Origin: Bacilli bacterium
GTDB lineage: Bacteria > Bacillota_I > Bacilli_A > RFN20 > CAG-826
Length of the DNA stretch: 64,000 bases
Assembly (NCBI GenBank): GCA_045615545.1
Contig: JAZLFA010000040.1
Coordinates: forward strand, 13,667-77,666
Direction: 5' to 3'
Shown: one piece after another, positions 4,521-49,117 of the stretch
Numbering within the stretch: position 1 is the first letter of the stretch
Layout of the letters: the number at the start of each line of letters is the position of its first letter
Notes under the pieces: generated by a model
What the model saw: the letters and a program-made list of their open reading frames with translations, nothing else
Databases searched by the model: none
Told to the model about the DNA's origin: nothing
Program-made: the position numbers and the translations under genes

Positions 4521-5031
4521 CCTCTTCAAATAACCAATCTTCTCCCTTAATTGCTTCATGAGTGGCAAGATTAGGGAATTTTTGTTGTCTTAAAACTTCA
4601 TACGCAACTAAAGCAACGCAATTAGATAAATTTAGCGACCTAGCTTCAGGAACCATTGGAATTCTAAATACATGTTCAATATTTTCTCTTAATATATCAT
4701 GAGGAATACCAGTAGATTCTTTTCCAAACATTAAATATATATCTTCACTTGCATTTGGATAAACAAATTCACTATATACATTTTTTCCATATCTTGAGAT
4801 GTAATAGATATTGATATTCGGATGAGACTGTTTAAATTCACTATAATTATTGTAGTAGGTTAATTTAAGTGAATCGATATAATCCATTCCAACGCGTTTT
4901 AAATCTTTGCTATCAATGGAAAAAGTTAACGGACCAATAATGTGTAAATGTCCGCCAATAGCAACACATGTACGCATAATGTTACCAGTATTTTGTGGTT
5001 TTTCAGGTTGATATAACACAATGTGAATCAT
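4501..5031 (-). CDS. trmL: tRNA (cytidine/uridine-2'-O)-methyltransferase, SpoU/TrmL family
   Basis: 176 aa. N-terminus YQPEKPQNTGNIMRTCVAIG is typical of TrmL-type SPOUT methyltransferases. Confidence 0.7.
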   Translation of the reverse strand: MIHIVLYQPEKPQNTGNIMRTCVAIGGHLHIIGPLTFSIDSKDLKRVGMDYIDSLKLTYYNNYSEFKQSHPNINIYYISRYGKNVYSEFVYPNASEDIYLMFGKESTGIPHDILRENIEHVFRIPMVPEARSLNLSNCVALVAYEVLRQQKFPNLATHEAIKGEDWLFEEVKKNND

Positions 5032-5437
5032 TTTTTTCGTACACTTTCATAGACACTTATTCGTGTAAGCGCACGTTCAAGCGCTGCTTCGGCACGAACT
5101 TTATCAATTTCTTTATCTTGTGATGCCATTCTTTCGTCCGCTCTTTTTTTAGCGCTTAATACGCGTTCAATATCAATCTCACTAGCATCTTCAATAGAAT
5201 TTAAAATAAGCGTTGCTTCATCATTGCCAACTTTAATCACTCCGCCACTTGTAGCAAAAGTTTTAACAGAGCCATTTTGTTTAAGTGTTAAAACACAAAT
5301 ACCAACTTCACTAATCAATGGAGTGTGTCCAGGAGTAATGCCTAAAGTAAAGTCATCATTTCTAAAAGAAATGGTACTAACATGAGAATCATAATATTTA
5401 CCATATGGAGTAAGGATCAAAAGATGAATTGTTTTCA

Positions 5438-5438
<1 letters not shown>
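5028..5438 (-). CDS. atpC: ATP synthase F1 epsilon subunit
   Basis: 136 aa. Last gene of the atp operon, with an epsilon-like beta-sandwich N-terminus and helical C-terminus. Confidence 0.8.
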
Positions 5439-6847
<1,409 letters not shown>

Positions 6848-15816: not shown

Positions 15817-17291
15817 TATTTAAACATCCTTGTCGCATTGACGGCTTTTTTCCATCCTTCATAAAGTTTATCAATTTCATCTTTATCCATTTTTGGTTCA
15901 TAAATTGCTTGGTAACAATGAATCTTTTTAATTTCATCTAAGGAGTTATAAAATCCACTGCATAGACCAGATAAATAACAAACACCTAACGCTGTTGTTT
16001 CTAAACATGTAGGAAGTTTGATTGAAGTATTTAAGATATCACTTTGGAATTGCATCAAGTATTTATTCGCTGTTGCGCCACCATCAACTTTAAGAGAATT
16101 TAAGCACATACAGGCATCTTTCCCCATTGCTTCAAATACATCTTTACATTGATACGCAATTGAATCTAATGATGCTCTAACAAAATGATTTCTGTTACTA
16201 CCGCGAGTTAAACCAAAAACAGCACCGCGAGCATCATCGTCCCAATAAGGAGTTCCAAGACCAACAAAAGCTGGTACCACATATACTCCGTGCGCGCTCT
16301 TACACGCGTTAGCACGCTCTTCGCTTTGGCCACTGTCATCAATCATTTTCATTTCATCGCGAAGCCACTGCACTACTGCACCACCAATAAACACCGATCC
16401 TTCTAAGGCATAAGTAACTTTATCTTTTATCTTCCAAGCTACAGTTGTTAATAATCCTGTTTCGCTTCCAATAGGTTTATCACCGGCATTCATTAACAAG
16501 AAGCAACCAGTGCCGTAAGTACATTTACAATCGCCAATATCAAAACATGTTTGGCCAAATAAAGCAGCTTGTTGATCTCCAGCCACACCACAAATAGGTA
16601 TCTTTCCTTCATCAATTTTAAAATCACCAAAGTGATAGCTTGATGGTTTTACTTCAGGAAGCATACACATTGGAATGTTAAATAAATCACACAATTGTTT
16701 ATCCCAACTCATCGTATGAATATTAAATAATAAAGTACGGCTGGCATTAGATACATCGGTTGCAAAAACTTTACGTCTTGTTAATTTATAAATTAACCAG
16801 CAGTCGATTGTGCCAAACATTAATTCGCCATTTTCTGCTCGAGCTTGTCCATTTGGAATATGGTCAAGAATAAATCTAATCTTACTAGCAGAAAAATATG
16901 GATTAATTAATAAACCAGTCTTTTCTTTGATAAAATCTTTTTTATCGCTTAATTGTTCGCATATTGAAGCAGACTGACGAGATTGCCAAATCACTGCATT
17001 ATAAACAGGCATACCAGTATCTTTTTCCCATACCACCGCCGTTTCTCTTTGATTAGTAATGCCAATAGAATCAATATCTTCACTTGTAATATTAGCAACA
17101 ATACTAATTTCCGCAATAACATCTAAAACTGATGAAATAATTGTGTTAGCGTCAGATTCGACCCATCCTGGATGTGGAAATAAACACTTAACTTCACGTT
17201 GAGCTTTGTAACAAAGTTTGCCATTATGGTCAAATAGAATGGCTCTAGAAGAAGTTGTACCTTGGTCAATGGCTAAAATGTATTTTTTCAT
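15816..17291 (-). CDS. glpK: Glycerol kinase
   Basis: 491 aa. N-terminus ILAIDQGTTSSRAILFD and FGGY-family motifs. Confidence 0.9.
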   Translation of the reverse strand: MKKYILAIDQGTTSSRAILFDHNGKLCYKAQREVKCLFPHPGWVESDANTIISSVLDVIAEISIVANITSEDIDSIGITNQRETAVVWEKDTGMPVYNAVIWQSRQSASICEQLSDKKDFIKEKTGLLINPYFSASKIRFILDHIPNGQARAENGELMFGTIDCWLIYKLTRRKVFATDVSNASRTLLFNIHTMSWDKQLCDLFNIPMCMLPEVKPSSYHFGDFKIDEGKIPICGVAGDQQAALFGQTCFDIGDCKCTYGTGCFLLMNAGDKPIGSETGLLTTVAWKIKDKVTYALEGSVFIGGAVVQWLRDEMKMIDDSGQSEERANACKSAHGVYVVPAFVGLGTPYWDDDARGAVFGLTRGSNRNHFVRASLDSIAYQCKDVFEAMGKDACMCLNSLKVDGGATANKYLMQFQSDILNTSIKLPTCLETTALGVCYLSGLCSGFYNSLDEIKKIHCYQAIYEPKMDKDEIDKLYEGWKKAVNATRMFK

Positions 17292-29265: not shown

Positions 29266-29356
29266 TGGCGGAGCAAGAGAGACTCGAACCCTCGCACCGG
29301 AAACCCGATCTACGTCCTTAGCAGGGACGCCCCTTCACCAACTTGGGTATTGCTCC
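29266..29356 (-). tRNA. tRNA-Ser (anticodon GCT)
   Basis: The reverse complement folds into a class II tRNA with a long variable arm, anticodon loop CTGCTAA, T-loop GGTTCGAGTCTC and encoded CCA. Confidence 0.85.
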
Positions 29357-29406: not shown

Positions 29407-30846
29407 TTAATAAGCTTTTGCAAATAATACAACTTTTGTTGCTTTTTTACCACAAACAGGGCATTTATCATCAAAGCCAATTTGATTAAATGGTATTGCT
29501 CTAGCAGTAGCTTGGAATTTATCTTTAATTGCTTTTTCACAAGCTTCATCTTCACACCACATGACTTTAGCGTATCCACCTTTGACATTTAGGATATAAT
29601 CAAGTTCTTCCATGTTATGTGCTTCTGTAATGTGTTCGAGTAAATATTTATTTGCTTTGTCATACATTTCCTTATGAATAACGCTAAACAATTCTTTAAC
29701 TTTATTTACCAACTCATCATAGCCACAGAATACCTTTTCTCCAGTGTTACGTTTAGCAAGAACGACTTGCTGTTTTTCGATATCTCTAGGACCAATCTCA
29801 AGTCTTAGTGGTACACCCTTCATTTCATATTCAGAGAACTTCCATCCTGGAGTCTTATCACTATCATCAATTTTGACCCTAATACCCGCGCTTGCGAGAA
29901 CTGATGCAATTCTTTTTGCTTCAGGGATGACTCCTGGTTTATTTGCAGCAACAGGAATAACAACAACTTGAATTGGGGCAACAAATGGAGGTAACACCAA
30001 TCCATTATCATCGCCGTGAACCATAATAATGCTGCCTAATAAACGTGTTGAAACGCCCCAACTTGTTTGATGAGGATTTTGAATTTTACCATCACGGTCT
30101 TGAAATGAAATACCAAATGCTTTTGCAAACCCATTACCAAAGTAGTGAGTCGTGCCGCTTTGTAATGCTTTTCCATCTGGCATTAAAGCTTCAATTGTAT
30201 AAGTTTCTTTAGCGCCAGCAAATTTTTCTTTTTCAGTTTTTCTTCCTTTTACAAAAGGAACAGCTAAAATATCTCTGCCTAAATCATCATAAATTTCAAG
30301 CATCTTTAATGTTTCGGTTCTTGCTTCTTCTTCGGTTTCGTGCATTGTGTGACCTTCTTGCCACAAGAATTCTGCTCCACGAAGGAAAGGACGGGTTGTT
30401 TTCTCCCATCTAACAACAGAGCACCATTGGTTGTATAGCTTTGGTAAATCACGATATGAATTAATTATTTTTGCATAATGTTCACAGAACAATGTTTCAC
30501 TAGTAGGACGAATAATTAATTTATCATCAATTTCTTCTCCTCCGCCCATAGTAGCCACTAATGTTTCAGGAGCAAATCCTGCAATATGATCTTTTTCTTT
30601 TTGAAATAAAGATTCAGGGATTACACTAGGCATATAAACATTTTCATGTCCTGTTTCTTTAAATCTAGCATCTAGATATTCTTTAATTCTTTCCCAAATA
30701 GCATAGCCATAAGGTCGATAAATAATAAATCCTTTTACACTGGAATAATCCATTAATTCTGCTTTTTTGCACACATCAGTGTACCACTGAGCAAAATCGA
30801 CACTTTGGCTAGTAATAGCGTCATTCTTTTTCATTTCACTACCCAT
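29407..30846 (-). CDS. proS: Prolyl-tRNA synthetase, archaeal/eukaryotic-like type (no editing insertion)
   Basis: 479 aa class II aaRS with the typical N-terminus FAQWYTDVCKKAELMDY and a C-terminal zinc-binding domain (CPVCGKK). Confidence 0.9.
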   Translation of the reverse strand: MGSEMKKNDAITSQSVDFAQWYTDVCKKAELMDYSSVKGFIIYRPYGYAIWERIKEYLDARFKETGHENVYMPSVIPESLFQKEKDHIAGFAPETLVATMGGGEEIDDKLIIRPTSETLFCEHYAKIINSYRDLPKLYNQWCSVVRWEKTTRPFLRGAEFLWQEGHTMHETEEEARTETLKMLEIYDDLGRDILAVPFVKGRKTEKEKFAGAKETYTIEALMPDGKALQSGTTHYFGNGFAKAFGISFQDRDGKIQNPHQTSWGVSTRLLGSIIMVHGDDNGLVLPPFVAPIQVVVIPVAANKPGVIPEAKRIASVLASAGIRVKIDDSDKTPGWKFSEYEMKGVPLRLEIGPRDIEKQQVVLAKRNTGEKVFCGYDELVNKVKELFSVIHKEMYDKANKYLLEHITEAHNMEELDYILNVKGGYAKVMWCEDEACEKAIKDKFQATARAIPFNQIGFDDKCPVCGKKATKVVLFAKAY

Positions 30847-32735: not shown

Positions 32736-32826
32736 GGAAAGGTACTCAAGTGGCCGAAGAGGGCAGTTTCGAAAACTGCTAGGAGATGCAAGTCTCGCGT
32801 GGGTTCAACTCCCACCCTTTCCGCCA
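32736..32826 (+). tRNA. tRNA-Ser (anticodon CGA)
   Basis: Class II tRNA with anticodon loop TTCGAAA, long variable arm, T-loop GGTTCAACTCC and encoded CCA. An extended -10 (TGTGATATAAT) lies just upstream. Confidence 0.85.
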
Positions 32827-41459: not shown

Positions 41460-42467
41460 ATGAGTGAAAAGATTCTTACAGGTATTAAACCGACTGGCCA
41501 ACTTACTCTTGGTAACTATTTAGGTGTGCTTAAACATCTTCCAGAAATGATGGATAGAGGTGAATGCTATATCTTTATCGCTGATCTTCACGCTCTTACA
41601 TTACCAATCGAACCTGAAGTATTAAGACAAAACAGCATCGACATTGCTTGCTTTTATTTAGCAGCAGGACTTGATCCAAAAAGAGTAACGCTATTCTTAC
41701 AAAGCAGCGTTTCAGCACACGCTGAACTCAACGCCATTATGCAAAACTATATGTATATGGGTGAACTTAGCAGAATGACTCAGTTCAAAGATGTTTGTGC
41801 TAAATTAAACTTATCAAAAGATGCAAAAGATTCCCATGTTGGCTTAGGTATATTCGCTTATCCTGTTCTTATGGCGTGCGATATTGTTTTATATGACGCT
41901 AATATCGTTCCTGTTGGTGCGGATCAATCTCAACATGTTGAGTTATGTCATGATTTAGTTAATAGATTCAATCATAAATATGGCGACATTCTAACGATGC
42001 CAAAAGCTGAAAATCAAAAAGTTGGCGCTAGAATTATGTCACTTAGTGACCCAACTAAAAAAATGAGTAAATCTGATCCAAAAGGAGATATCTTCCTTAA
42101 AGATGATTTAGCGATTGTTCGTAAAAAGATTATGTCTGCTGTTACTGATATGGGAAACGAAATTAAATTTGATCCAGAAAATAAACCTGGCATATCAAAC
42201 TTATTAACAATTTATGCAGCAACCAAAGGAATCTCAATCGAAGAAGCAGAAAAACAATTTGTTGGTTTCCGTTATGGAGACTTTAAGAAAGCTGTTGCGG
42301 ATGCGGTAGTTGAAGACTTAGGTGCCTTCCAAGAAAGATATAAAAAGATCCTTGAATCAAAGGCTTATGTTGAAGTCTTAAAACAAGGAGCAACCAAAGC
42401 AAACATAGTTGCAAATAAAACACTTAAACGTGTTAAAGAAGCTGTCGGTTTACTTAGTATCGATTAG
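41460..42467 (+). CDS. trpS: Tryptophanyl-tRNA synthetase
   Basis: Start taken at MSEKILTGIKPTG, which has a GAGGT RBS. HIGH-like TGQLTLGNY, KMSKS, and GADQ motifs. Confidence 0.9.
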   Translation: MSEKILTGIKPTGQLTLGNYLGVLKHLPEMMDRGECYIFIADLHALTLPIEPEVLRQNSIDIACFYLAAGLDPKRVTLFLQSSVSAHAELNAIMQNYMYMGELSRMTQFKDVCAKLNLSKDAKDSHVGLGIFAYPVLMACDIVLYDANIVPVGADQSQHVELCHDLVNRFNHKYGDILTMPKAENQKVGARIMSLSDPTKKMSKSDPKGDIFLKDDLAIVRKKIMSAVTDMGNEIKFDPENKPGISNLLTIYAATKGISIEEAEKQFVGFRYGDFKKAVADAVVEDLGAFQERYKKILESKAYVEVLKQGATKANIVANKTLKRVKEAVGLLSID

Positions 42468-43427
42468 TTTATCGAGCAAAGTTTTACATTCTAAAGGCAT
42501 ATCTACTTCGATATGCTTTTTATTTAAATTATTTAATGGAGCGGATAATTCACCAAAATCAATACGATTAGCAACTAGAAATTGATTCTTGAATCCATAT
42601 TCTTTTTCAATCATATGATTAAGTTCAAAATCACCATATTTATTATCGCCCACTACTGGGTGATGAATATAAGACATATGTACTCTAATTTGATGCGTCC
42701 TTCCAGACTCTAAAACCACATCTAATAAAGTGTATCCATTCATTTTTGTAATCACATGGTAATTTGTTCTAGATGGCTTTCCGCCTTCTTCAATTGGAGT
42801 AACAAACACCAAGGAAGATTTTTCATTTTTCTTTAAAGGAGCATCAATAAAACCATCTTTATCAATTTCACCTTTAACAAGTGTAATATAATGTTTGCTA
42901 ATTAATGTTTTTTCTTTAATTAATGTAAATAAATATTGTAAAACCTTAGTATTTTTACCGAAAATTACAAGTCCTGCTGTATTTCTATCTAGTCGATGAG
43001 CTGGTCCAGGAGTATAACTGTCTCCCACTTTATATTCACCTTTATAAACTAAATAAGATAAGACCATATCATCTAAAGCTTTTACTCCAGCCTTATCTTT
43101 TTGAACCAATAAGCCACGTGGTTTATTAATTATTAAAATATTGTCATCTTCATAAACAAATAATGTTTTAATTTCATCGCTAGGTTCAATCTTTTTATTT
43201 GAAGCAAATTCATCAAACTGTGCATCGGTTACATATATTGAAACAATATCACCTTGATGAATTTTTGTTTTATCTTTTTCCCAATGGTTATTTATGCGAA
43301 CATCTTTTTTTCTAAACAACTTATAAATAAAAGAACTAGGGGCGTTAGGCAAAACTTTCCTAACATATTTTTCTAAGGAAAGGCCCTCTTCTTCTTTTTT
43401 GATTGTATAGCTAACCATAAATAACAT
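42450..43427 (-). CDS. RluA-family 23S rRNA pseudouridine synthase (RluD-like) with N-terminal S4 domain
   Basis: 325 aa. HRLDRNTAGLV catalytic motif and an S4-like N-terminus. Its 3' end overlaps trpS by 18 nt (convergent). Confidence 0.8.
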   Translation of the reverse strand: MLFMVSYTIKKEEEGLSLEKYVRKVLPNAPSSFIYKLFRKKDVRINNHWEKDKTKIHQGDIVSIYVTDAQFDEFASNKKIEPSDEIKTLFVYEDDNILIINKPRGLLVQKDKAGVKALDDMVLSYLVYKGEYKVGDSYTPGPAHRLDRNTAGLVIFGKNTKVLQYLFTLIKEKTLISKHYITLVKGEIDKDGFIDAPLKKNEKSSLVFVTPIEEGGKPSRTNYHVITKMNGYTLLDVVLESGRTHQIRVHMSYIHHPVVGDNKYGDFELNHMIEKEYGFKNQFLVANRIDFGELSAPLNNLNKKHIEVDMPLECKTLLDKLIDTK

Positions 43428-43519
43428 TTTATATTATGGAAGTTTAAAAAAATAGGGTGCATATTATTTTTATTTTGATATAATAAAACACGCTAAATAA
43501 TTATGGTTCAGCACACACT

Positions 43520-43610
43520 GGAGGAATACCCAAGAGGCTGAAGGGGCGGGCTTGGAAAGCTCGTAGGCATGTAAAAGTGTGCGAGGGTTCAAATCCCTCT
43601 TCCTCCGCCA
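43520..43610 (+). tRNA. tRNA-Ser (anticodon GGA)
   Basis: Class II tRNA with acceptor GGAGGAA/TTCCTCC, anticodon loop TTGGAAA, long variable arm, T-loop GGTTCAAATCC and encoded CCA. Confidence 0.85.
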
Positions 43611-43642
43611 TTTACAAAAAAGTTCGATGAATACGAACTTTT

Positions 43643-44917
43643 TTAATTTTTAAGACTTGTTATTGGCACTACATATACGCCATCGTTTCTTCTATAAGCA
43701 GCGTTAGTTAAACCACAAATGACGCATAGCTGCCTAGCTGGTTTGCCACCTTTTTTTTCAATATTTTTATTTAAAGCAATAAGTTTTAAAGCGGCATCAT
43801 CAATTTGATTGGCGCCTAACTTAATTTCAAATGCACACCAAGAACCATCTTCAAGTTCAATCACAGAATCAATTTCGTTATTTTCGTAATCTTGGTAATG
43901 AAATAACTTTCCTCCAAAAGACTCAGCATAAGTTAATAAATCTCTCTGAACAAGTGATTCAAACATAAATCCTAATAAGTCTAAATTATTCAACAACTTT
44001 TCATGCGATAAATTTAATAAAGCACATGGTAAAGAAGGATCAACAAAATGCCTTTTTTCGCTTTGCTTAACTCGAATAGAAGACCTAATGTTTGAAGAAA
44101 AAGGAGGTATATTTTCTAGTATATATAAATTATTAAACAAATTTAGATAATCAGTAATTGTATCAACATCAATATCATGTGAATCTTTTTCTATAATGTC
44201 TCTTTTCAAAGTTGTATTTGTCACAGTTGTACATTCGTTTCTTGCTAGAGATTTTAGAAGTAACTCAATTTTGTGTTTATCTCTTTTTATATCATCAACT
44301 TTAAAAATATCTTCATTAATTACAGATTTAATGTATTCTTTACTAACTAACATACCTCGTTTAACATCTAATTCTAGTGTTGCGGGCCACCCACCGACGA
44401 CAATACAATCGATAATATCATTTATATCTACTTCATTAAGATAAACATCTTTTGCTTTTCCATAACATATATCAAGCAAAGAAATTTCACCTTTTGATTT
44501 ACCGCTCTCATATAAAGACATTGGCCTCATTTTTAAACGAGCTATTCTGCCGGTTCCAGTATGAATGTATTTATTCTTATTTATTGTCGCAGAACCAGTT
44601 AATATAAATTGCCCTTTTCTTGGATCTGAATCAACCTTCCCTCTAACGGCATCCCAAATTAAAGGTGCTTCTTGCCATTCATCTATTAATCTAGGAAAAT
44701 TACCATCCAGTATAAGGTATGGATTCATTAAAGCTAATTTTTTATTGTTAAAATTTCCTTTTGGATCAGATAACATAACTTCGCTATTAGAATTATTTTT
44801 GCTTGTCCATGTTTTTCCACACCATTTAGGACCTTCAATTAAAATAGAAGAAAATGTTGTAAGATAGAAACTTATCTTTTCATCTATTATTCTTTGCTTG
44901 TAATTTACTAATTTCAT
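43643..44917 (-). CDS. AAA-family ATPase (AAA_14) with C-terminal DUF4143 domain (putative PD-(D/E)xK nuclease fold); paralog 1
   Basis: 424 aa. Walker A GPKWCGKT, Walker B-like LILDGNF.LIDEWQ, and C-terminal EIDSVIELEDGSWCAFEIKLG (D...ExK pattern). Confidence 0.7.
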   Translation of the reverse strand: MKLVNYKQRIIDEKISFYLTTFSSILIEGPKWCGKTWTSKNNSNSEVMLSDPKGNFNNKKLALMNPYLILDGNFPRLIDEWQEAPLIWDAVRGKVDSDPRKGQFILTGSATINKNKYIHTGTGRIARLKMRPMSLYESGKSKGEISLLDICYGKAKDVYLNEVDINDIIDCIVVGGWPATLELDVKRGMLVSKEYIKSVINEDIFKVDDIKRDKHKIELLLKSLARNECTTVTNTTLKRDIIEKDSHDIDVDTITDYLNLFNNLYILENIPPFSSNIRSSIRVKQSEKRHFVDPSLPCALLNLSHEKLLNNLDLLGFMFESLVQRDLLTYAESFGGKLFHYQDYENNEIDSVIELEDGSWCAFEIKLGANQIDDAALKLIALNKNIEKKGGKPARQLCVICGLTNAAYRRNDGVYVVPITSLKN

Positions 44918-44948
44918 TTTGCAAAACCTCTGAAATTATATTATTACA

Positions 44949-45017
44949 TTCCGATAATTTAGTCAAACTTATTCCGAGAGTTTTGATAGTTTTGTTCCGA
45001 GAGATTTAGAATATCTG
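44949..45017. repeat. Three direct copies of a TTCCGA(T/G)AG-containing 23-bp unit
   Basis: TTCCGATAA at 44949, TTCCGAGAG at 44972 and 44995. The exact 23-bp spacing lies 32-100 nt upstream of the paralog-1 start (44917). Confidence 0.4.
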
Positions 45018-45110
45018 TGTAATGGCAATGTACTGGTAACCTAAAAGTAGACACACAAAATTTATTCAGTAGACACACGAATGTTAAAATGGAAACAAGG
45101 AGGATTAAAT

Positions 45111-45449
45111 ATGTGGAGAACATATCAAGAAGAAGTAGACATTGGAAACAAAGTTTTTAATCACGTAATGACAAAAACGGAAGCAATGGAACAATTTGAT
45201 TTAACAAATAACGAGCTTACAACTTGTATTAAAAAATACATGAAAGAAAACAATATTCCAATCATACCTGAAGTGCTTAATGCTATAAGCATTGAGTTTC
45301 CAAATTACTATGATTTAAGTAAAGAGGAATTGATCAAAGAAATCATGAAAAAAGACATTGAGGTTGAACGTGCAAAAAAAGGATACACAGTGAGAGGGGG
45401 TGGAAAGACAAAGGAGTTCATTTCTATAAAAGATGCGAATATCAAATAG
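45111..45449 (+). CDS. IS3-family transposase OrfA (HTH)
   Basis: Start at MWRTYQ with AAGGAGG 7 nt upstream. Small helical DNA-binding protein immediately 5' of orfB. Confidence 0.5.
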   Translation: MWRTYQEEVDIGNKVFNHVMTKTEAMEQFDLTNNELTTCIKKYMKENNIPIIPEVLNAISIEFPNYYDLSKEELIKEIMKKDIEVERAKKGYTVRGGGKTKEFISIKDANIK

Positions 45450-45451
45450 TA

Positions 45452-46051
45452 ATGCAGCTTTCAAATAAATGGCACGTAAGAGATTTATGCGATGCGATGT
45501 CTATATCAAGATCAGGCTTCTATAAATGGAGAAAAAGAATCAACAATCCATGCAAGACTGTTAAAAAACGAATGGATGATATAATTCTCTTTGAGAAATA
45601 TCACAAGAAATATCCAAGCCACGGTTATAGATGGCTTAACGCAAAAATAAGATTAGACCTAGGTTTAGTTATGTCTGATCAATATGCACATAGATGTTGT
45701 AAATTCGCTGGAATAAAATCTCAATCAAAACATTACCAATATAAAGCGCCAGGAGAAAATAGAAGAGTCTTTGAAAACATGGTTATGTCATCCATAAAAA
45801 TGGATGGCCCATTACAAGTTGTGGTCTCAGATATGACAGCCTTCTGGGCAAATAAAACATATTGGGAATTAACTTTATATATGGATTTGTGGAATGATGA
45901 AATCATAGGCTATGGTTTATCAAGCCGAAGAGGTGATAGAAACACTTATTTCGAAGGATTAAAACAAGTTTGTGAAAAAATAAAAGGAATAGAAGGTCTT
46001 GAGTTGATTTTGCACACAGATTGGATAAGTATTGCAACAGGAATTTTTTAA
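45452..46051 (+). pseudogene. IS3-family transposase OrfB, 3'-truncated (no DDE glutamate region)
   Basis: SRSGFYKWRKR, YPSHGYRWLNAKI, VVSDMTAF (first D) and LYMDLWNDEIIGY (second D) match IS150-like OrfB. The ORF stops at 199 aa against about 280 expected. Confidence 0.65.
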
Positions 46052-46340
46052 ATATAAGTATTGCATAGCAAAAAGAGGCTAGATTTAGCCATTTTTTATT
46101 TTTTTGTCATATAATTACTATTGTTGGATTGTAAAAACTTCTCGCTTAGAACATACCGCATATATGATTCTAGCAAGCTTAAAGACCCAATCACCGACTG
46201 GTCTAGAACATAAGGAAGAAACATAGTACATCAGAAAGAAGAAATTCGTTCTCCACTACGGCATTTACATAAATTAAAAAGACTCCAAAATGAGTCTGTT
46301 GATGGCTTCGGCCATCTTTTCTTTTGCTTTTTGAGACCTT

Positions 46341-46398
46341 ACGTGTCCTAACATTTAGTCTTAAAAGTGCTTACGTGCCCTAACATTTAAGGACATTC
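46341..46398. repeat. Two adjacent copies of the 20-26 bp motif ACGTG(T/C)CCTAACATTTA(A/G) (third copy at 48023-48048)
   Basis: 46341-46360 ACGTGTCCTAACATTTAGTC. 46373-46398 ACGTGCCCTAACATTTAAGGACATTC. 48023-48048 ACGTGTCCTAACATTTAAGGACATTC. The motif contains the hairpin GTCCT-aacattta-AGGAC. Confidence 0.55.
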
Positions 46399-46426
46399 AC
46401 AAAAAAGTTCGATAAATCGGACTTTT

Positions 46427-47713
46427 TTAATTTTTTAAACAAGCAAGAGGGACTTCATAAACTCCATCTTCTCTCTTTAAAGCAGCTACTCCTTTAGTTA
46501 TAACCATTAAAAAAGCAGGTTTTCCAGTTTTTTCTTTATCAATATCGTTGGAAATTTTAATTAATTTTTTTGCTGCCTCATCAATATCTTCTTGATCAGT
46601 AAGTTTGACTTCGATTAATGCCCAACTGCCATCTCTAAATTGAATAACAGCATCTGCTTCGCGATCCATTTGATCTTTATAATGATAAACATTTGCTCCA
46701 AAAGTATCACAGTATATTCTTAAATCACGAATTGCTAATGATTCAAACAAAAATCCAAAAGTATTCATATCACTAAATAACCCTTTTGGACCAATCCCAA
46801 GTGAAGCGGCCGCAATAGAAGGATCAACAAAATGTCTAGTATTTTTTGATCTAATTGAAACTTTGCTTCTTAGATTAGGATTCCAAGCCTCCAATTCCTC
46901 TACAACATATAGTCTTTTAAGAGCAAGTAAATACTTCTCAAATGTTTTTACATCAAAAGAATTATCATTAGATGCAACATCATTTACAATGACACTATCT
47001 GCGCACTGAGATCCAATATTTCTTGAATATGAACGCATTATTTTTTTTGCTTTATTTACATCTTTTCTTATTTTAATATCTTTTAGTGAAAATAAATCCT
47101 CATTTACAACAGCATCATAAAAATCTATAACTTGTTGTAATGCAACATCTTTTTCTTGATTAATTGATAATGGCCATCCGCCACGACAAATATAATATGT
47201 GTAGTCTTCAATTGTTTTATTAGATAAACATGGTTCAAATATGCCTTCTTTTAAATTAAGTAACGAAACTTTTCCGTTACTATCTCCGCTTTCAAACAAA
47301 GACATAGGTCTCATCATTTTTCTCACAATTCTTCCTGCACCAGTATGCCTTTCGCCATTATTCTTTGAAATGGTTTTATCGGTAATACTTCCTGTTAATA
47401 TAAATTGTCCAAAAGATCCGCTCTTATCAACTTGGTCTTTTATAGAATTCCAAATAAAAGATATTTCCTGCCATTCGTCTATCATAAGTGGTTTTTCACC
47501 TTGTTGCAAAAAAATAGTTGGCGAAGCTTTTGCCAAATCAATATATTGTTGTTTTGTTTCTTCTATTGTTAAATCGATAATAGTTTTTGCTTGTCTAGCT
47601 GAAGTTGTTGATTTGCCACACCATTTAGGGCCAACCACCAATACAGCTCCTTTTGATTTAAGCGAAAATCTTAACGTTTCATCAAACAATCTTGGTATAT
47701 AATTTTTTTCCAT
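46427..47713 (-). CDS. AAA-family ATPase (AAA_14) with C-terminal DUF4143 domain; paralog 2
   Basis: 428 aa. Walker A GPKWCGKS, MIDEWQ, and C-terminal EADAVIQFRDGSWALIEVKLT. About 40-45% identical to paralog 1 by eye. Confidence 0.7.
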   Translation of the reverse strand: MEKNYIPRLFDETLRFSLKSKGAVLVVGPKWCGKSTTSARQAKTIIDLTIEETKQQYIDLAKASPTIFLQQGEKPLMIDEWQEISFIWNSIKDQVDKSGSFGQFILTGSITDKTISKNNGERHTGAGRIVRKMMRPMSLFESGDSNGKVSLLNLKEGIFEPCLSNKTIEDYTYYICRGGWPLSINQEKDVALQQVIDFYDAVVNEDLFSLKDIKIRKDVNKAKKIMRSYSRNIGSQCADSVIVNDVASNDNSFDVKTFEKYLLALKRLYVVEELEAWNPNLRSKVSIRSKNTRHFVDPSIAAASLGIGPKGLFSDMNTFGFLFESLAIRDLRIYCDTFGANVYHYKDQMDREADAVIQFRDGSWALIEVKLTDQEDIDEAAKKLIKISNDIDKEKTGKPAFLMVITKGVAALKREDGVYEVPLACLKN

Positions 47714-47766
47714 ATTAAATTATCCTCAAAGGTATGATACATCATTAATAAATTAATGTAAATACT

Positions 47767-47832
47767 AAATCCCAAAAATGTAAGTAAATAAATCCCAGAA
47801 ATGTAAGTAAATAAATCCCAAAAATATAAAAT
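47767..47832. repeat. 23-bp tandem direct repeat, 2.8 copies (AAATCCCARAAATGTAAGTAAAT)
   Basis: Units at 47767, 47790 and 47813, the last degenerate. They sit between the HTH mini-gene stop and the paralog-2 start. Confidence 0.65.
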
Positions 47833-47945
47833 TACTTAATATGTTTTATAGCACCATTGATTTTTTTAGATGAACAATAATTACGTGCAGTTCTTTCTGA
47901 GATATTCCATTTTTCTGAATATTTTTTAACTGATATAAATTTCAT
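47832..47945 (-). CDS. 37-aa helix-turn-helix protein (AlpA/excisionase-like HTH_17), absent from the ORF track
   Basis: The minus-strand frame translates to MKFISVKKYSEKWNISERTARNYCSSKKINGAIKHIK. ISERTARNY is a typical phage Xis/AlpA recognition-helix motif. Confidence 0.4.
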   Translation of the reverse strand: MKFISVKKYSEKWNISERTARNYCSSKKINGAIKHIK

Positions 47946-48214
47946 GCTTTGGTAATACCATCAGACGGCAAGAAGTTCAATACTTTAATAAAGTTTTATT
48001 TTTTATGCCGTTTACAATTCATACGTGTCCTAACATTTAAGGACATTCTTGATTGCAAATACACATGAAATGTCGTGTGTATTTTTATTTTGTAATATTA
48101 ATGAAATTTGCTTGCAAATAAATGACTTATTAATATTATTTGTTGCTTTTTATCGCAAAGACTATCAAAAAGAGGCATAATTATATTATGCTAATCAAAA
48201 AGGAAGTTAAATGA

Positions 48215-49117
48215 ATGACTAATTATAAAATCATTACCGATAGTTCCAGTGATATTCCAACTGACATAAGAGAAAAACACGGAATTGACTATTTTCAAAT
48301 GGGTATTGTCGTAGATGGCGAACAAATGCCAGCGGATTTAGATTGGAAAACATATACTCCAGATGAACTATATGGTTGGTTATCTGCAGGAAGAAAATTA
48401 AAAACAAACCTTATTACAGTAGAAACATTTATTAATAAAATTAAGCAATACTTTGAAAAGGGTATCGATGTTTTATATCTTGGTTGCTCAACCGCATTAA
48501 CCGGATCATTAAACAGTTTTAATTTAGCAAAAGAAATATTAATGGAAGAATATCCTTCTAGAAGAATGGAAGCAGTACAAACTTATGCTGCAGCAGCAAC
48601 ATTAGGTATGTTAGTTGTGGATGCAGCAAGAGAGCAAGAAAAGGGCGCTGATATCGACACCGTTATGAAATGGGTTGAAGATCATCGTTTCTTCTATAAC
48701 CAATTCTGCACAGTTGATACATTAACTTTCTTAAAAGATGCTGGAAGAATTAAAGGCACAGCTGCTTTCTTCGGAAATATTGTTGGTGTTAAACCTGTCT
48801 TTATTTCGGATCGAAAAGGAAATAATCTTGTTATCGAAAAACTTAGAGGTACAAAAGCGAGTTTGAATGCTATATATCAACATATTATGGATGTAATTGA
48901 TCTCAATCACGCATCTAGAGTTGTTATTGCTCATTCCGGAGTAAGTGATCGCGCTGAATTGTTAAAAGCGCGTTTCTTGGAAGCTGGAATAAAAGAAGTA
49001 ATTATTGTTCCACTTGGACCAATTATTGGAATTACTTGTGGGCCAGGCACAATATCAACCTTCTGTTATGGTAAAGAAGTTACCAGATACGAAGGCGACG
49101 GAATTAGTGTTAAATAG
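48215..49117 (+). CDS. DegV-family fatty-acid-binding protein
   Basis: 300 aa. N-terminus YKIITDSSSDIP and the DegV fold pattern. Confidence 0.85.
   Translation: MTNYKIITDSSSDIPTDIREKHGIDYFQMGIVVDGEQMPADLDWKTYTPDELYGWLSAGRKLKTNLITVETFINKIKQYFEKGIDVLYLGCSTALTGSLNSFNLAKEILMEEYPSRRMEAVQTYAAAATLGMLVVDAAREQEKGADIDTVMKWVEDHRFFYNQFCTVDTLTFLKDAGRIKGTAAFFGNIVGVKPVFISDRKGNNLVIEKLRGTKASLNAIYQHIMDVIDLNHASRVVIAHSGVSDRAELLKARFLEAGIKEVIIVPLGPIIGITCGPGTISTFCYGKEVTRYEGDGISVK

Follow-up and report, generated by a model that had tools for sequence, protein, structure and literature searches.

What do the two related ATPase-nuclease genes that lie between a serine tRNA gene and degV do, and what keeps such potentially toxic proteins in check? 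We consider this question for a 64,000-nucleotide (nt) stretch of a Bacilli bacterium genome (contig JAZLFA010000040.1; this whole stretch is hereafter the window), which has a G+C content of about 30% and whose proteins find their named homologues in 'Bacilli bacterium' metagenome-assembled genomes. The variable segment from tRNA-Ser(GGA) to degV measures 4.6 kb and holds two minus-strand genes of one family, gene 1 (43643-44917; 424 amino acids (aa)) and gene 2 (46427-47713; 428 aa), with a truncated IS3-type insertion sequence (IS) between them. Both genes fall in PDC-S01, a family that is very abundant yet without a positive phenotype, catalogued and mechanistically blank, to which the window adds two members. 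We show that an array of direct repeats with a period of 23 bp, found in front of each gene, is a cis element shared across the clade; this is the new point here, and apart from the arrays the locus is an ordinary variable site. On balance, we lean towards a reading in which the genes form cassettes with self-operator arrays and encode an ATP-switched nuclease that would act in anti-phage or anti-plasmid defence.

The two genes are almost certainly intact ATPase-nucleases of the PDC-S01 type. An initial annotation of this DNA had placed two minus-strand AAA_14 plus DUF4143 paralogues directly after tRNA-Ser(GGA), each joining a P-loop ATPase and a candidate PD-(D/E)xK nuclease in one chain, and on both points we agree with it. 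Pfam scores pass the gathering cutoffs for gene 1 (DUF4143, 108.8 bits against a cutoff of 28.1; AAA_14, 45.4 bits against 27) as well as for gene 2 (97.2 and 44.8 bits, respectively), with the domains in the same order in both. Full-length identity between the two proteins is 38%, below the 40-45% first estimated. Across an alignment of 91 homologues from three subfamilies, 22-97% identical to gene 1, the ATPase residues G29, G34 and K35 of Walker A, D79 and E80 of Walker B, and R124 are invariant. The same is true of E320, D350 and K366 in the nuclease domain, where E364 of the ExK motif is conserved in at least 90% of sequences.

A confident AlphaFold2 model (pLDDT 89.5, pTM 0.90) divides the chain into a P-loop ATPase (residues ~1-160), a helical lid (165-226), a winged helix with a basic wing (234-291) and a C-terminal domain (295-424). 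The last has the alpha-beta-beta-beta-alpha-beta core of the PD-(D/E)xK fold, with the catalytic E on helix 1, the D on strand 2 and the ExK on strand 3. The initial annotation had proposed a structural comparison of this part with PD-(D/E)xK folds; modelled separately, the C-terminal 142 residues (pLDDT 83) match almost exclusively PD-(D/E)xK nucleases, many of them defence effectors, including Can1, NucS, McrC, Card1/Can2, NgoMIV, Cap4, Shedu SduA and many restriction enzymes. The part of the chain ahead of the nuclease (NTPase, helical lid and winged helix) can be superposed on STAND proteins, and its best structure matches are STAND-type archaeal ATPases; in the model, the sensor or repeat domain of the STAND architecture is absent and the chain ends in the nuclease. 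No relative with a solved structure was detected in a sequence search of the PDB.

The family had been thought to lack an assignment, which does not hold, as both genes are full-length matches to the PADLOC PDC-S01 model PDLC04790 (gene 1, residues 5-422 of 424, E = 1.5e-59; gene 2, residues 1-426 of 428, E = 4.3e-55). PDC-S01, which equals COG1373 or Pfam AAA_14 plus DUF4143, is like the window genes a single-gene unit, and is described in the literature as an ATPase fused to a PD-(D/E)xK domain; DUF4143/COG1373 was listed as a PD-(D/E)xK family already in 2012 (PMC3424549). It is reported as the fourth commonest 'defence' in prokaryotes, with 29,494 occurrences in bacteria and 9,986 in archaea, and as the most frequent single defence locus in rumen genomes (10,358 loci in 6,530 genomes). 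The wider family, clustered at 50% identity, comprises 7,132 clusters at E <= 1e-3 and 702 at E <= 1e-30. The 145 PADLOC candidates were drawn from genes embedded in BREX, DISARM and type I restriction-modification systems ('guilt by embedding') and were released as candidates. Additionally, an expression-change table for Thermus thermophilus lists an AAA_14/DUF4143 gene as up 6.6-fold with plasmid DNA present.

Triple 23-bp repeats had been noted upstream of both genes, and the two cases differ in clarity. The gene-2 array (47766-47834, minus strand; three 23-nt units, TTTTTGGGATTTATTTACTTACA) is unambiguous, its score of 32 being reached by no shuffle. The gene-1 array (44949-45017, minus strand) has three 23-nt units with the core CTCGGAAY, visible on the plus strand as TTCCGA at 44949, 44972 and 44995, and is degenerate (period-23 score 10, P = 0.0005; P = 0.024 for any period); it becomes convincing because homologues have matching arrays. 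A 22-nt repeat that adjoins it belongs to the left end of the IS. Both arrays overlap or abut predicted promoters. For gene 1, the predicted promoter (44938-44966, minus strand; -35 TTGACT, 17-nt spacer, -10 TAATAT; 9 of 12 positions in a consensus scan) has the proximal repeat core between its -35 and -10 hexamers. For gene 2, the predicted promoter (47734-47762, minus strand; -35 TTTACA, 17-nt spacer, -10 TATCAT) starts 3 nt past the array and, with 10 of 12 matches, is one of three top-scoring sites in the region. The motifs of the two arrays are unlike each other, within a single genome.

Homologous loci share the period. We scanned upstream regions for the best self-repeat period between 12 and 40 nt, taking the other open reading frames (ORFs) of the same loci as controls. 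Of 87 unique regions upstream of homologous genes, 72 had exactly 23 nt as their best period, as did 59 of the 61 that scored at least 14. Among the 194 controls the count was 17, several of these 17 sharing an intergenic region with a family gene (Fisher P = 4e-35 for homologous loci against controls). On viral contigs, period 23 was found for 19 of 21 members of the clade of gene 1 and gene 2; in a sister clade of about 25% identity with the same domains it was found for 1 of 28, with none scoring. No extra domain distinguishes the array-bearing from the array-less clade, only indels of 1-6 residues. The arrays span Bacilli, Actinomycetota (Collinsella) and Bacteroidota, and plasmids of cultured Collinsella aerofaciens and Bacteroides uniformis have them too. 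In the library searched, we found no description of a cis-acting repeat array for the AAA_14-DUF4143 family.

The spacing of these arrays is fixed and their sequence is not. From a repeat span of 1.7-7.7 periods, an array appears to comprise about 2-8 units, and the median distance from its end to the start codon is 48 nt. Within one array the units are on average 83-98% conserved per position, and most have a G/C-bearing core followed by an A-rich spacer. The cores vary by lineage, including CTCGGAAY, ATCGGATTG, ACCGAA, CATCGGAAGT, GGGTGGATG, TTGCACAA and TTTGGGATTT. Two homologues with 72-73% aa identity (loci L002 and L006) have four units of CTCGGAAC / CTCGGATTG at 23-nt spacing, and the gene-2 array is retained as three units in each of the loci L016/L017 and L009. 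The number of units shifts between near-identical cassettes, with three at gene 1 in the window and two in L001 (97.7% nt identity). Similarity of units follows similarity of proteins weakly for all four domains (Spearman 0.25-0.34), with the highest value for the ATPase region.

Three further observations concern array-like sequences. In L006, the repeats upstream of a 452-aa-type paralogue that lies beyond a Wadjet operon (ATTGGAAAACGGGTCAAAAATAGTGAAAAACAT; 16270-16540; at least five units, interrupted by an assembly gap) have a period of 33 nt; thus, other subfamilies may use other spacings. On a plasmid of Collinsella aerofaciens ATCC 25986 (L170, 3632-3965), about 35 nt separate the 23-nt array of the DUF4143 gene from the end of an XRE-type helix-turn-helix (HTH) regulator gene, with a copy of IS21 just upstream. 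We also considered the arrays as mimics of a phage or plasmid target; the gene-2 array, the one motif tried, had no match in IMG/VR or a phage collection, which leaves this idea without support.

We suggest that the arrays are bound by something the cassette itself encodes, because the period is fixed as motifs drift, the units are homogeneous, the motifs are specific to each paralogue, and a single gene travels with each array. Binding by the cassette's own protein is thus rather likely, and the ATPase/winged-helix protein is the obvious candidate. A cassette would comprise a 23-bp-phased array, an overlapping or abutting promoter, the gene and a terminator. By analogy with phased operators elsewhere, the protein may bind its own array as a cooperative oligomer and so keep its own promoter repressed. 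Tight, paralogue-specific autorepression is the simplest function, because the arrays overlap the promoter, and it would suit a potentially toxic nuclease. Since each paralogue has a private operator, we propose that there is no cross-talk between gene 1 and gene 2.

The effector step is modelled on STAND, Avs and McrBC-type systems. A trigger linked to invading DNA would switch ATP-dependent assembly from the operator to nuclease action on invading or host DNA, and the outcome would be anti-phage or anti-plasmid defence, possibly abortive. Whether the biological role is defence against phages or plasmids we regard as evenly balanced. A more specific version, which we offer as a tentative and somewhat doubtful idea, is that the arrays are assembly platforms, on which each protein would recognise its own motif and polymerise with one protomer per 23 bp, at once the site of autorepression and a holding place for the inactive nuclease, from which the oligomer would be released or re-targeted by invading DNA or by loss of the cassette. 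If true, the PDC-S01 clade would be an 'iteron-nuclease' module complete in itself, serving defence or addiction, and its control logic would be new among characterised defence systems. The conserved array also offers a first handle on the family, with predictions for DNA-binding specificity, autoregulation and stoichiometry.

Several observations weigh against the reading of self-operated defence cassettes. The gene-1 array, taken alone, is only marginal. The sister clade shares the domains and lacks the arrays, which must therefore be dispensable for basic activity. Domain-wise covariation gave no signal specific to the winged helix, in a test that shared descent confounds, and the predicted recognition helix of the winged helix, as judged from the sequence at the helix positions of the model, is not basic. 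Additionally, the window genes adjoin rluD, a tRNA, an IS remnant and degV, with no other defence genes. Finally, one PDC-S01 representative assayed in E. coli B against T7, T5 and T4 was outside the four protective candidates, an outcome that a self-repressed gene needing a specific trigger could explain.

The surroundings of the cassettes in related loci (171 were fetched) bear on whether they are better seen as defence genes or as elements that serve themselves. The exact sequences of the two window proteins are not on record, and one NCBI contig of 85 kb appears to carry near-identical versions of both genes; relatives further away differ. In L016/L017, a gene-2-type copy (86% nt identity) lies directly against tRNA-Ser(GGA) and an RluD-like gene (PseudoU_synth_2, 327 aa), and thus occupies the position that gene 1 has in the window. 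In L001, the 3' end of a Ser-tRNA-like gene, of which 34 nt are on the contig, adjoins a copy of the gene-1 type (97.7% nt), and MatE and NUDIX genes lie upstream of this copy instead. In a unitig (L019), the flank of the gene-2 type is not a tRNA. Homology between cassettes begins at the distal array end and breaks off shortly after the terminator (...TTTTTTGYRAATG); for gene 2, homology to L016/L017 breaks at 46401, beside one copy of a 26-nt direct repeat. Only the gene and its array move together between contexts. Adjacency to a tRNA is rare in the family, with 4 such loci against 167 family genes scanned.

An 18-mer at 45012-45029 (minus strand), written ATTGCCATTACACAGATA and ATTGCCRTTACACAGATA, marks the distal edge of the variable site beside tRNA-Ser. 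Among the window and the fetched loci it occurs only in the window, L001 and L016, which are the three tRNA-Ser contexts, and the sequence beyond it differs in all three; the IS3 copy of the window is inserted exactly at this 18-mer. The initial annotation had held that core-genome conservation of the two genes would speak against an island, and we find that relatives differ in paralogue type and in neighbours at the tRNA-Ser site, which is not core-conserved. A search of genome contigs with DegV returned only relatives of 47-58% identity, none with a tRNA or shared gene order. The segment from the tRNA to degV is a lineage-specific variable site at which cassettes appear to be swapped, relatives carrying either paralogue type.

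Two observations from other assemblies touch on the edges of the cassette. In L016 (480-560), two 23-nt units of a third motif (AAAAAGTTGYTCAC...) stand just upstream of the intact gene-2-type array and look like the remnant of an earlier resident cassette. Logan unitigs from many runs (L018-L023; 1431-1433 nt) contain a gene-2-type cassette; they stop inside the 23-nt array at one end and, at the other, about 60 nt beyond the stop codon, where about 30 nt of the flank (tRNA or other sequence) are included. Their ends suggest variable array length, more than one flanking context within populations, or both.

A hairpin with an 11-pair stem and a T-run (43616-43644, found in a plus-strand scan) follows the tRNA, faces gene 1 and is a putative bidirectional terminator of both. 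The terminator scan returned a diverged copy of this hairpin, without a tRNA, at 46401-46428 behind gene 2; in all, 45 nt including the hairpin are common to the 3' sides of both genes (43609-43653 and 46394-46438, 82% identity). This sharing had been read as a conserved terminator of the paralogues. The shared sequence is real, and it appears to belong to the tRNA: the hairpin is found behind the tRNA at each of the three loci with a tRNA context, with either paralogue type as the resident, and is missing from cassettes elsewhere (L002, L006 and L009). Thus, the shared terminator is best read as that of tRNA-Ser itself. The copy behind gene 2 would then have been duplicated with the second cassette and mark its former place beside a tRNA.

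The direct repeats of 26 nt that had been described as flanking gene 2 are likewise real. Copy a (46373-46398, ACGTGYCCTAACATTTAAGGACATTC, a small palindrome) and copy b (48023-48048) are identical save for one Y position, two matches against 0.00 expected, and a partial third copy lies at 46340-46357. Neither this repeat nor the IS remnant has a copy in any of the 171 fetched loci or in plasmids. The tiny HTH gene reported with these repeats fared less well. It is a 37-aa ORF (47832-47945, minus strand) whose HTH_17 match (E = 0.007) reaches 17 bits and so stays below the cutoff of 27, and it is not conserved with the cassette; the region is missing from L016/L017 and L009, and the ORF is probably a remnant outside the cassette. 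On the terminator and the HTH gene, then, the earlier details were over-read.

The IS3-family remnant that had been placed between the paralogues is indeed there (45029-46051, plus strand), and consists of a left inverted repeat (45029-45056), orfA (45081-45449) and a truncated orfB (45452-46051). orfB lies in the -1 frame relative to orfA, beginning 2 nt after its stop, and matches the NCBIfam IS3 transposase model (E = 2.5e-22) only over model positions 97-282 of 369; in tblastn, the remnant is about 29% identical to annotated IS3 transposases. No right inverted repeat was found, and the left one occurs once in the window. With an incomplete transposase and a single terminal repeat, this copy is dead. 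It is followed by a non-coding spacer of 320 nt (46052-46372) that includes the partial 26-nt copy and in which the terminator scan finds three small hairpins, among them a back-to-back pair at 46280-46297 (minus strand) and 46301-46316 (plus strand); the spacer has no match in Rfam, the fetched loci or plasmids. Close to degV, a 12-pair hairpin with a T-run (48057-48084, plus strand) begins 8 nt after copy b and lies about 130 nt before the gene; it may once have terminated a gene now lost, or may serve degV as a leader element.

Housekeeping genes border the segment on both sides. To the left of tRNA-Ser(GGA) (43520-43610, plus strand; ARAGORN, and Rfam tRNA with 51.6 bits) lie NAD kinase-like, CYTH, Spx/ArsC-like and TrpRS genes and the gene of an RluD-type pseudouridine synthase (42450-43427, minus strand; Pfam PseudoU_synth_2, E = 2.5e-31). 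The right border is degV (48215-49117, plus strand; Pfam DegV, E = 3.3e-52). The tRNA is the sole Rfam match across 43000-48600. Three tRNA-Ser genes lie inside 15 kb of this DNA, GCT at 29266-29356, CGA at 32736-32826 and GGA at 43520-43610 (within window positions 21065-58031). The first 272 nt of L001 resemble, at 73% identity, a gene beside tRNA-Ser(GCT) (window 29407-29679); thus, gene order around the tRNA-Ser genes differs among relatives.

Elsewhere, members of the family are found next to known defence systems and on mobile elements. In L006, Wadjet JetABCD lies immediately beside a homologue 73% identical to gene 1, and a further family member flanks Wadjet on the far side; in L009, PDC-S05 and AbiEi/AbiEii share an island with a homologue 87% identical to gene 2. 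Additionally, 207 plasmid records carry family members, including a Bacteroides conjugative element and a small Collinsella plasmid. This distribution is that of a mobile accessory gene, and fits defence as well as selfishness. Two loci show associations of another kind. On a 44.5-kb IMG/VR contig (L117), a member of the gene-2 clade (4980-6278) lies antisense inside a phage replication module with an SNF2 helicase, a VapE-like primase, a family A polymerase, an Enc34-type single-stranded DNA-binding protein and DUF2800, and looks like a moron. In L011 (3513-5631), a 268-aa reverse transcriptase (YMDD; PADLOC reverse transcriptase model, E = 6e-32) lies 95 nt upstream, on the same strand, of an AAA_14-DUF4143 gene of 405 aa that is 25% identical to gene 1 and has no array; the two may form a reverse transcriptase plus ATPase-nuclease pair.

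For the initial annotation as a whole, this means that its observation is confirmed with minor corrections and its interpretation is partly supported. The locus is accessory and variable in relatives, and homologues lie near Wadjet, AbiE and PDC-S05; the hallmarks of tRNA integration fail. A defence or mobile character of the locus is plausible, and a defence role is likely but unproven.

The distribution just described would also be expected if the cassettes were selfish modules, maintained or spread by post-segregational killing on loss of a sequestering array or by nuclease-stimulated copying, an explanation that we hold to be unlikely. It would account for single genes with their own promoter and terminator in contexts as unrelated as tRNA genes, defence islands, plasmids, conjugative elements and a phage module, and for differing paralogue types at one chromosomal site in relatives. 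The third-array remnant stacked upstream of the current array in L016, and Logan unitigs that break at or near cassette edges in many samples, would fit as well. So would the short direct repeats that bracket both cassette-bearing segments in the window, the very high copy numbers in surveys (10,358 loci in the 6,530 rumen genomes) and the negative result of the sole phage test. However, no recombinase or transposase is linked to the cassette, which has no terminal inverted repeats and no regular target duplications. Because the cassette ends in functional elements, an operator and a terminator, similarity may simply fade where constraint on the sequence stops. The direct repeats of the window are the tRNA terminator and a local palindrome, absent from the 171 other loci, and breaks of unitigs in tandem repeats are expected on technical grounds.

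A different objection leaves the cassettes as they are and takes the arrays away from the ATPase-nuclease. The arrays might be bound by a neighbouring HTH regulator or a host factor, or be mere promoter architecture, and would then be uninformative on the protein. Genes with HTH domains do lie upstream at several loci (the 37-aa ORF of the window, the XRE-type gene of Collinsella, and HTH_3 genes in L002 and L009); covariation specific to the winged helix is absent, and the sister clade works without arrays. These HTH neighbours are, however, of mixed family and orientation, and there is none in L001, L006, L016 or Bacteroides pBUN1. Motifs differ between paralogues in one genome and drift with the protein, and the 23-nt period is fixed across Bacilli, Actinomycetota and Bacteroidota despite differing promoters and host factors. 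We consider this explanation improbable, and retain the cassette's own protein as the candidate binder.

It is very improbable that the protein is an initiator-like ATPase and the array a set of iterons, together forming a replication or partition-type module of a mobile element. An initiator gene beside phased direct repeats of about 22 bp is the classic layout of plasmid rep-iteron regions and archaeal origins, and family members do occur on plasmids. Yet most copies are chromosomal, often several per genome, with no association with a plasmid backbone; the invariant, intact nuclease site is foreign to such initiators; the arrays lie at the promoter, with no unwinding element evident adjacent; and the best structure matches are instead STAND-type archaeal ATPases. 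Scarcely credible, finally, is an integrase-inserted and later degraded tRNA-Ser genomic island: the segment does lie directly 3' of a tRNA with IS debris and accessory genes, but it is not a classical tRNA island, because it has no integrase (none among the ORFs of 43611-48214) or excisionase, the only candidate being the 37-aa ORF with its sub-threshold HTH_17 match, no second copy of the tRNA 3' end exists in the window (at most 3 mismatches in 22 nt; only the tRNA itself matches), its composition is no outlier (GC 0.25-0.36 against 0.27-0.38 in the flanks), and relatives hold a single cassette at the same spot, which argues for cassette swapping rather than an attB site.

How, then, do self-operated ATPase-nuclease cassettes compare with known systems? 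Operators made of phased direct repeats are familiar from plasmid Rep proteins and their iterons, from archaeal Orc1/Cdc6 and ORB boxes, and from the STAND regulator MalT and its MalT boxes. Like these, the cassettes have about 2-8 repeats at a fixed spacing of about two helical turns, beside or overlapping the promoter of an ATPase/winged-helix gene. The spacing in the window is 23 bp, unlike in those systems, and the protein carries a nuclease, so the likeness is one of layout only.

On the side of the effector, the window proteins have the PD-(D/E)xK core in common with Can1, Card1/Can2, Cap4, McrC, Shedu SduA, NucC and NucS. Those nucleases are only 8-17% identical to the window domain and have their own activators (CARF/SAVED, the McrB GTPase and others). 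The archaeal proteins PAB2304 (2qen) and SSO1545 (2fna) are Walker ATPases that are STAND-like by structure and, unlike the window proteins, lack a nuclease domain. Some Avs proteins of the STAND class also join an NTPase and a nuclease effector in one chain; in contrast to these, the proteins of gene 1 and gene 2 have no C-terminal repeat or sensor, carry the nuclease at the C-terminal rather than the N-terminal end, and are only about 425 aa long. A parallel combination of ATPase and PD-(D/E)xK domain is found in Bacteroidota, where AAA-ATPase_like plus PDDEXK_9 (DUF1703) proteins, a different Pfam family likened here by description, likewise occur in multiple copies and in unconserved contexts (PMC3424549).

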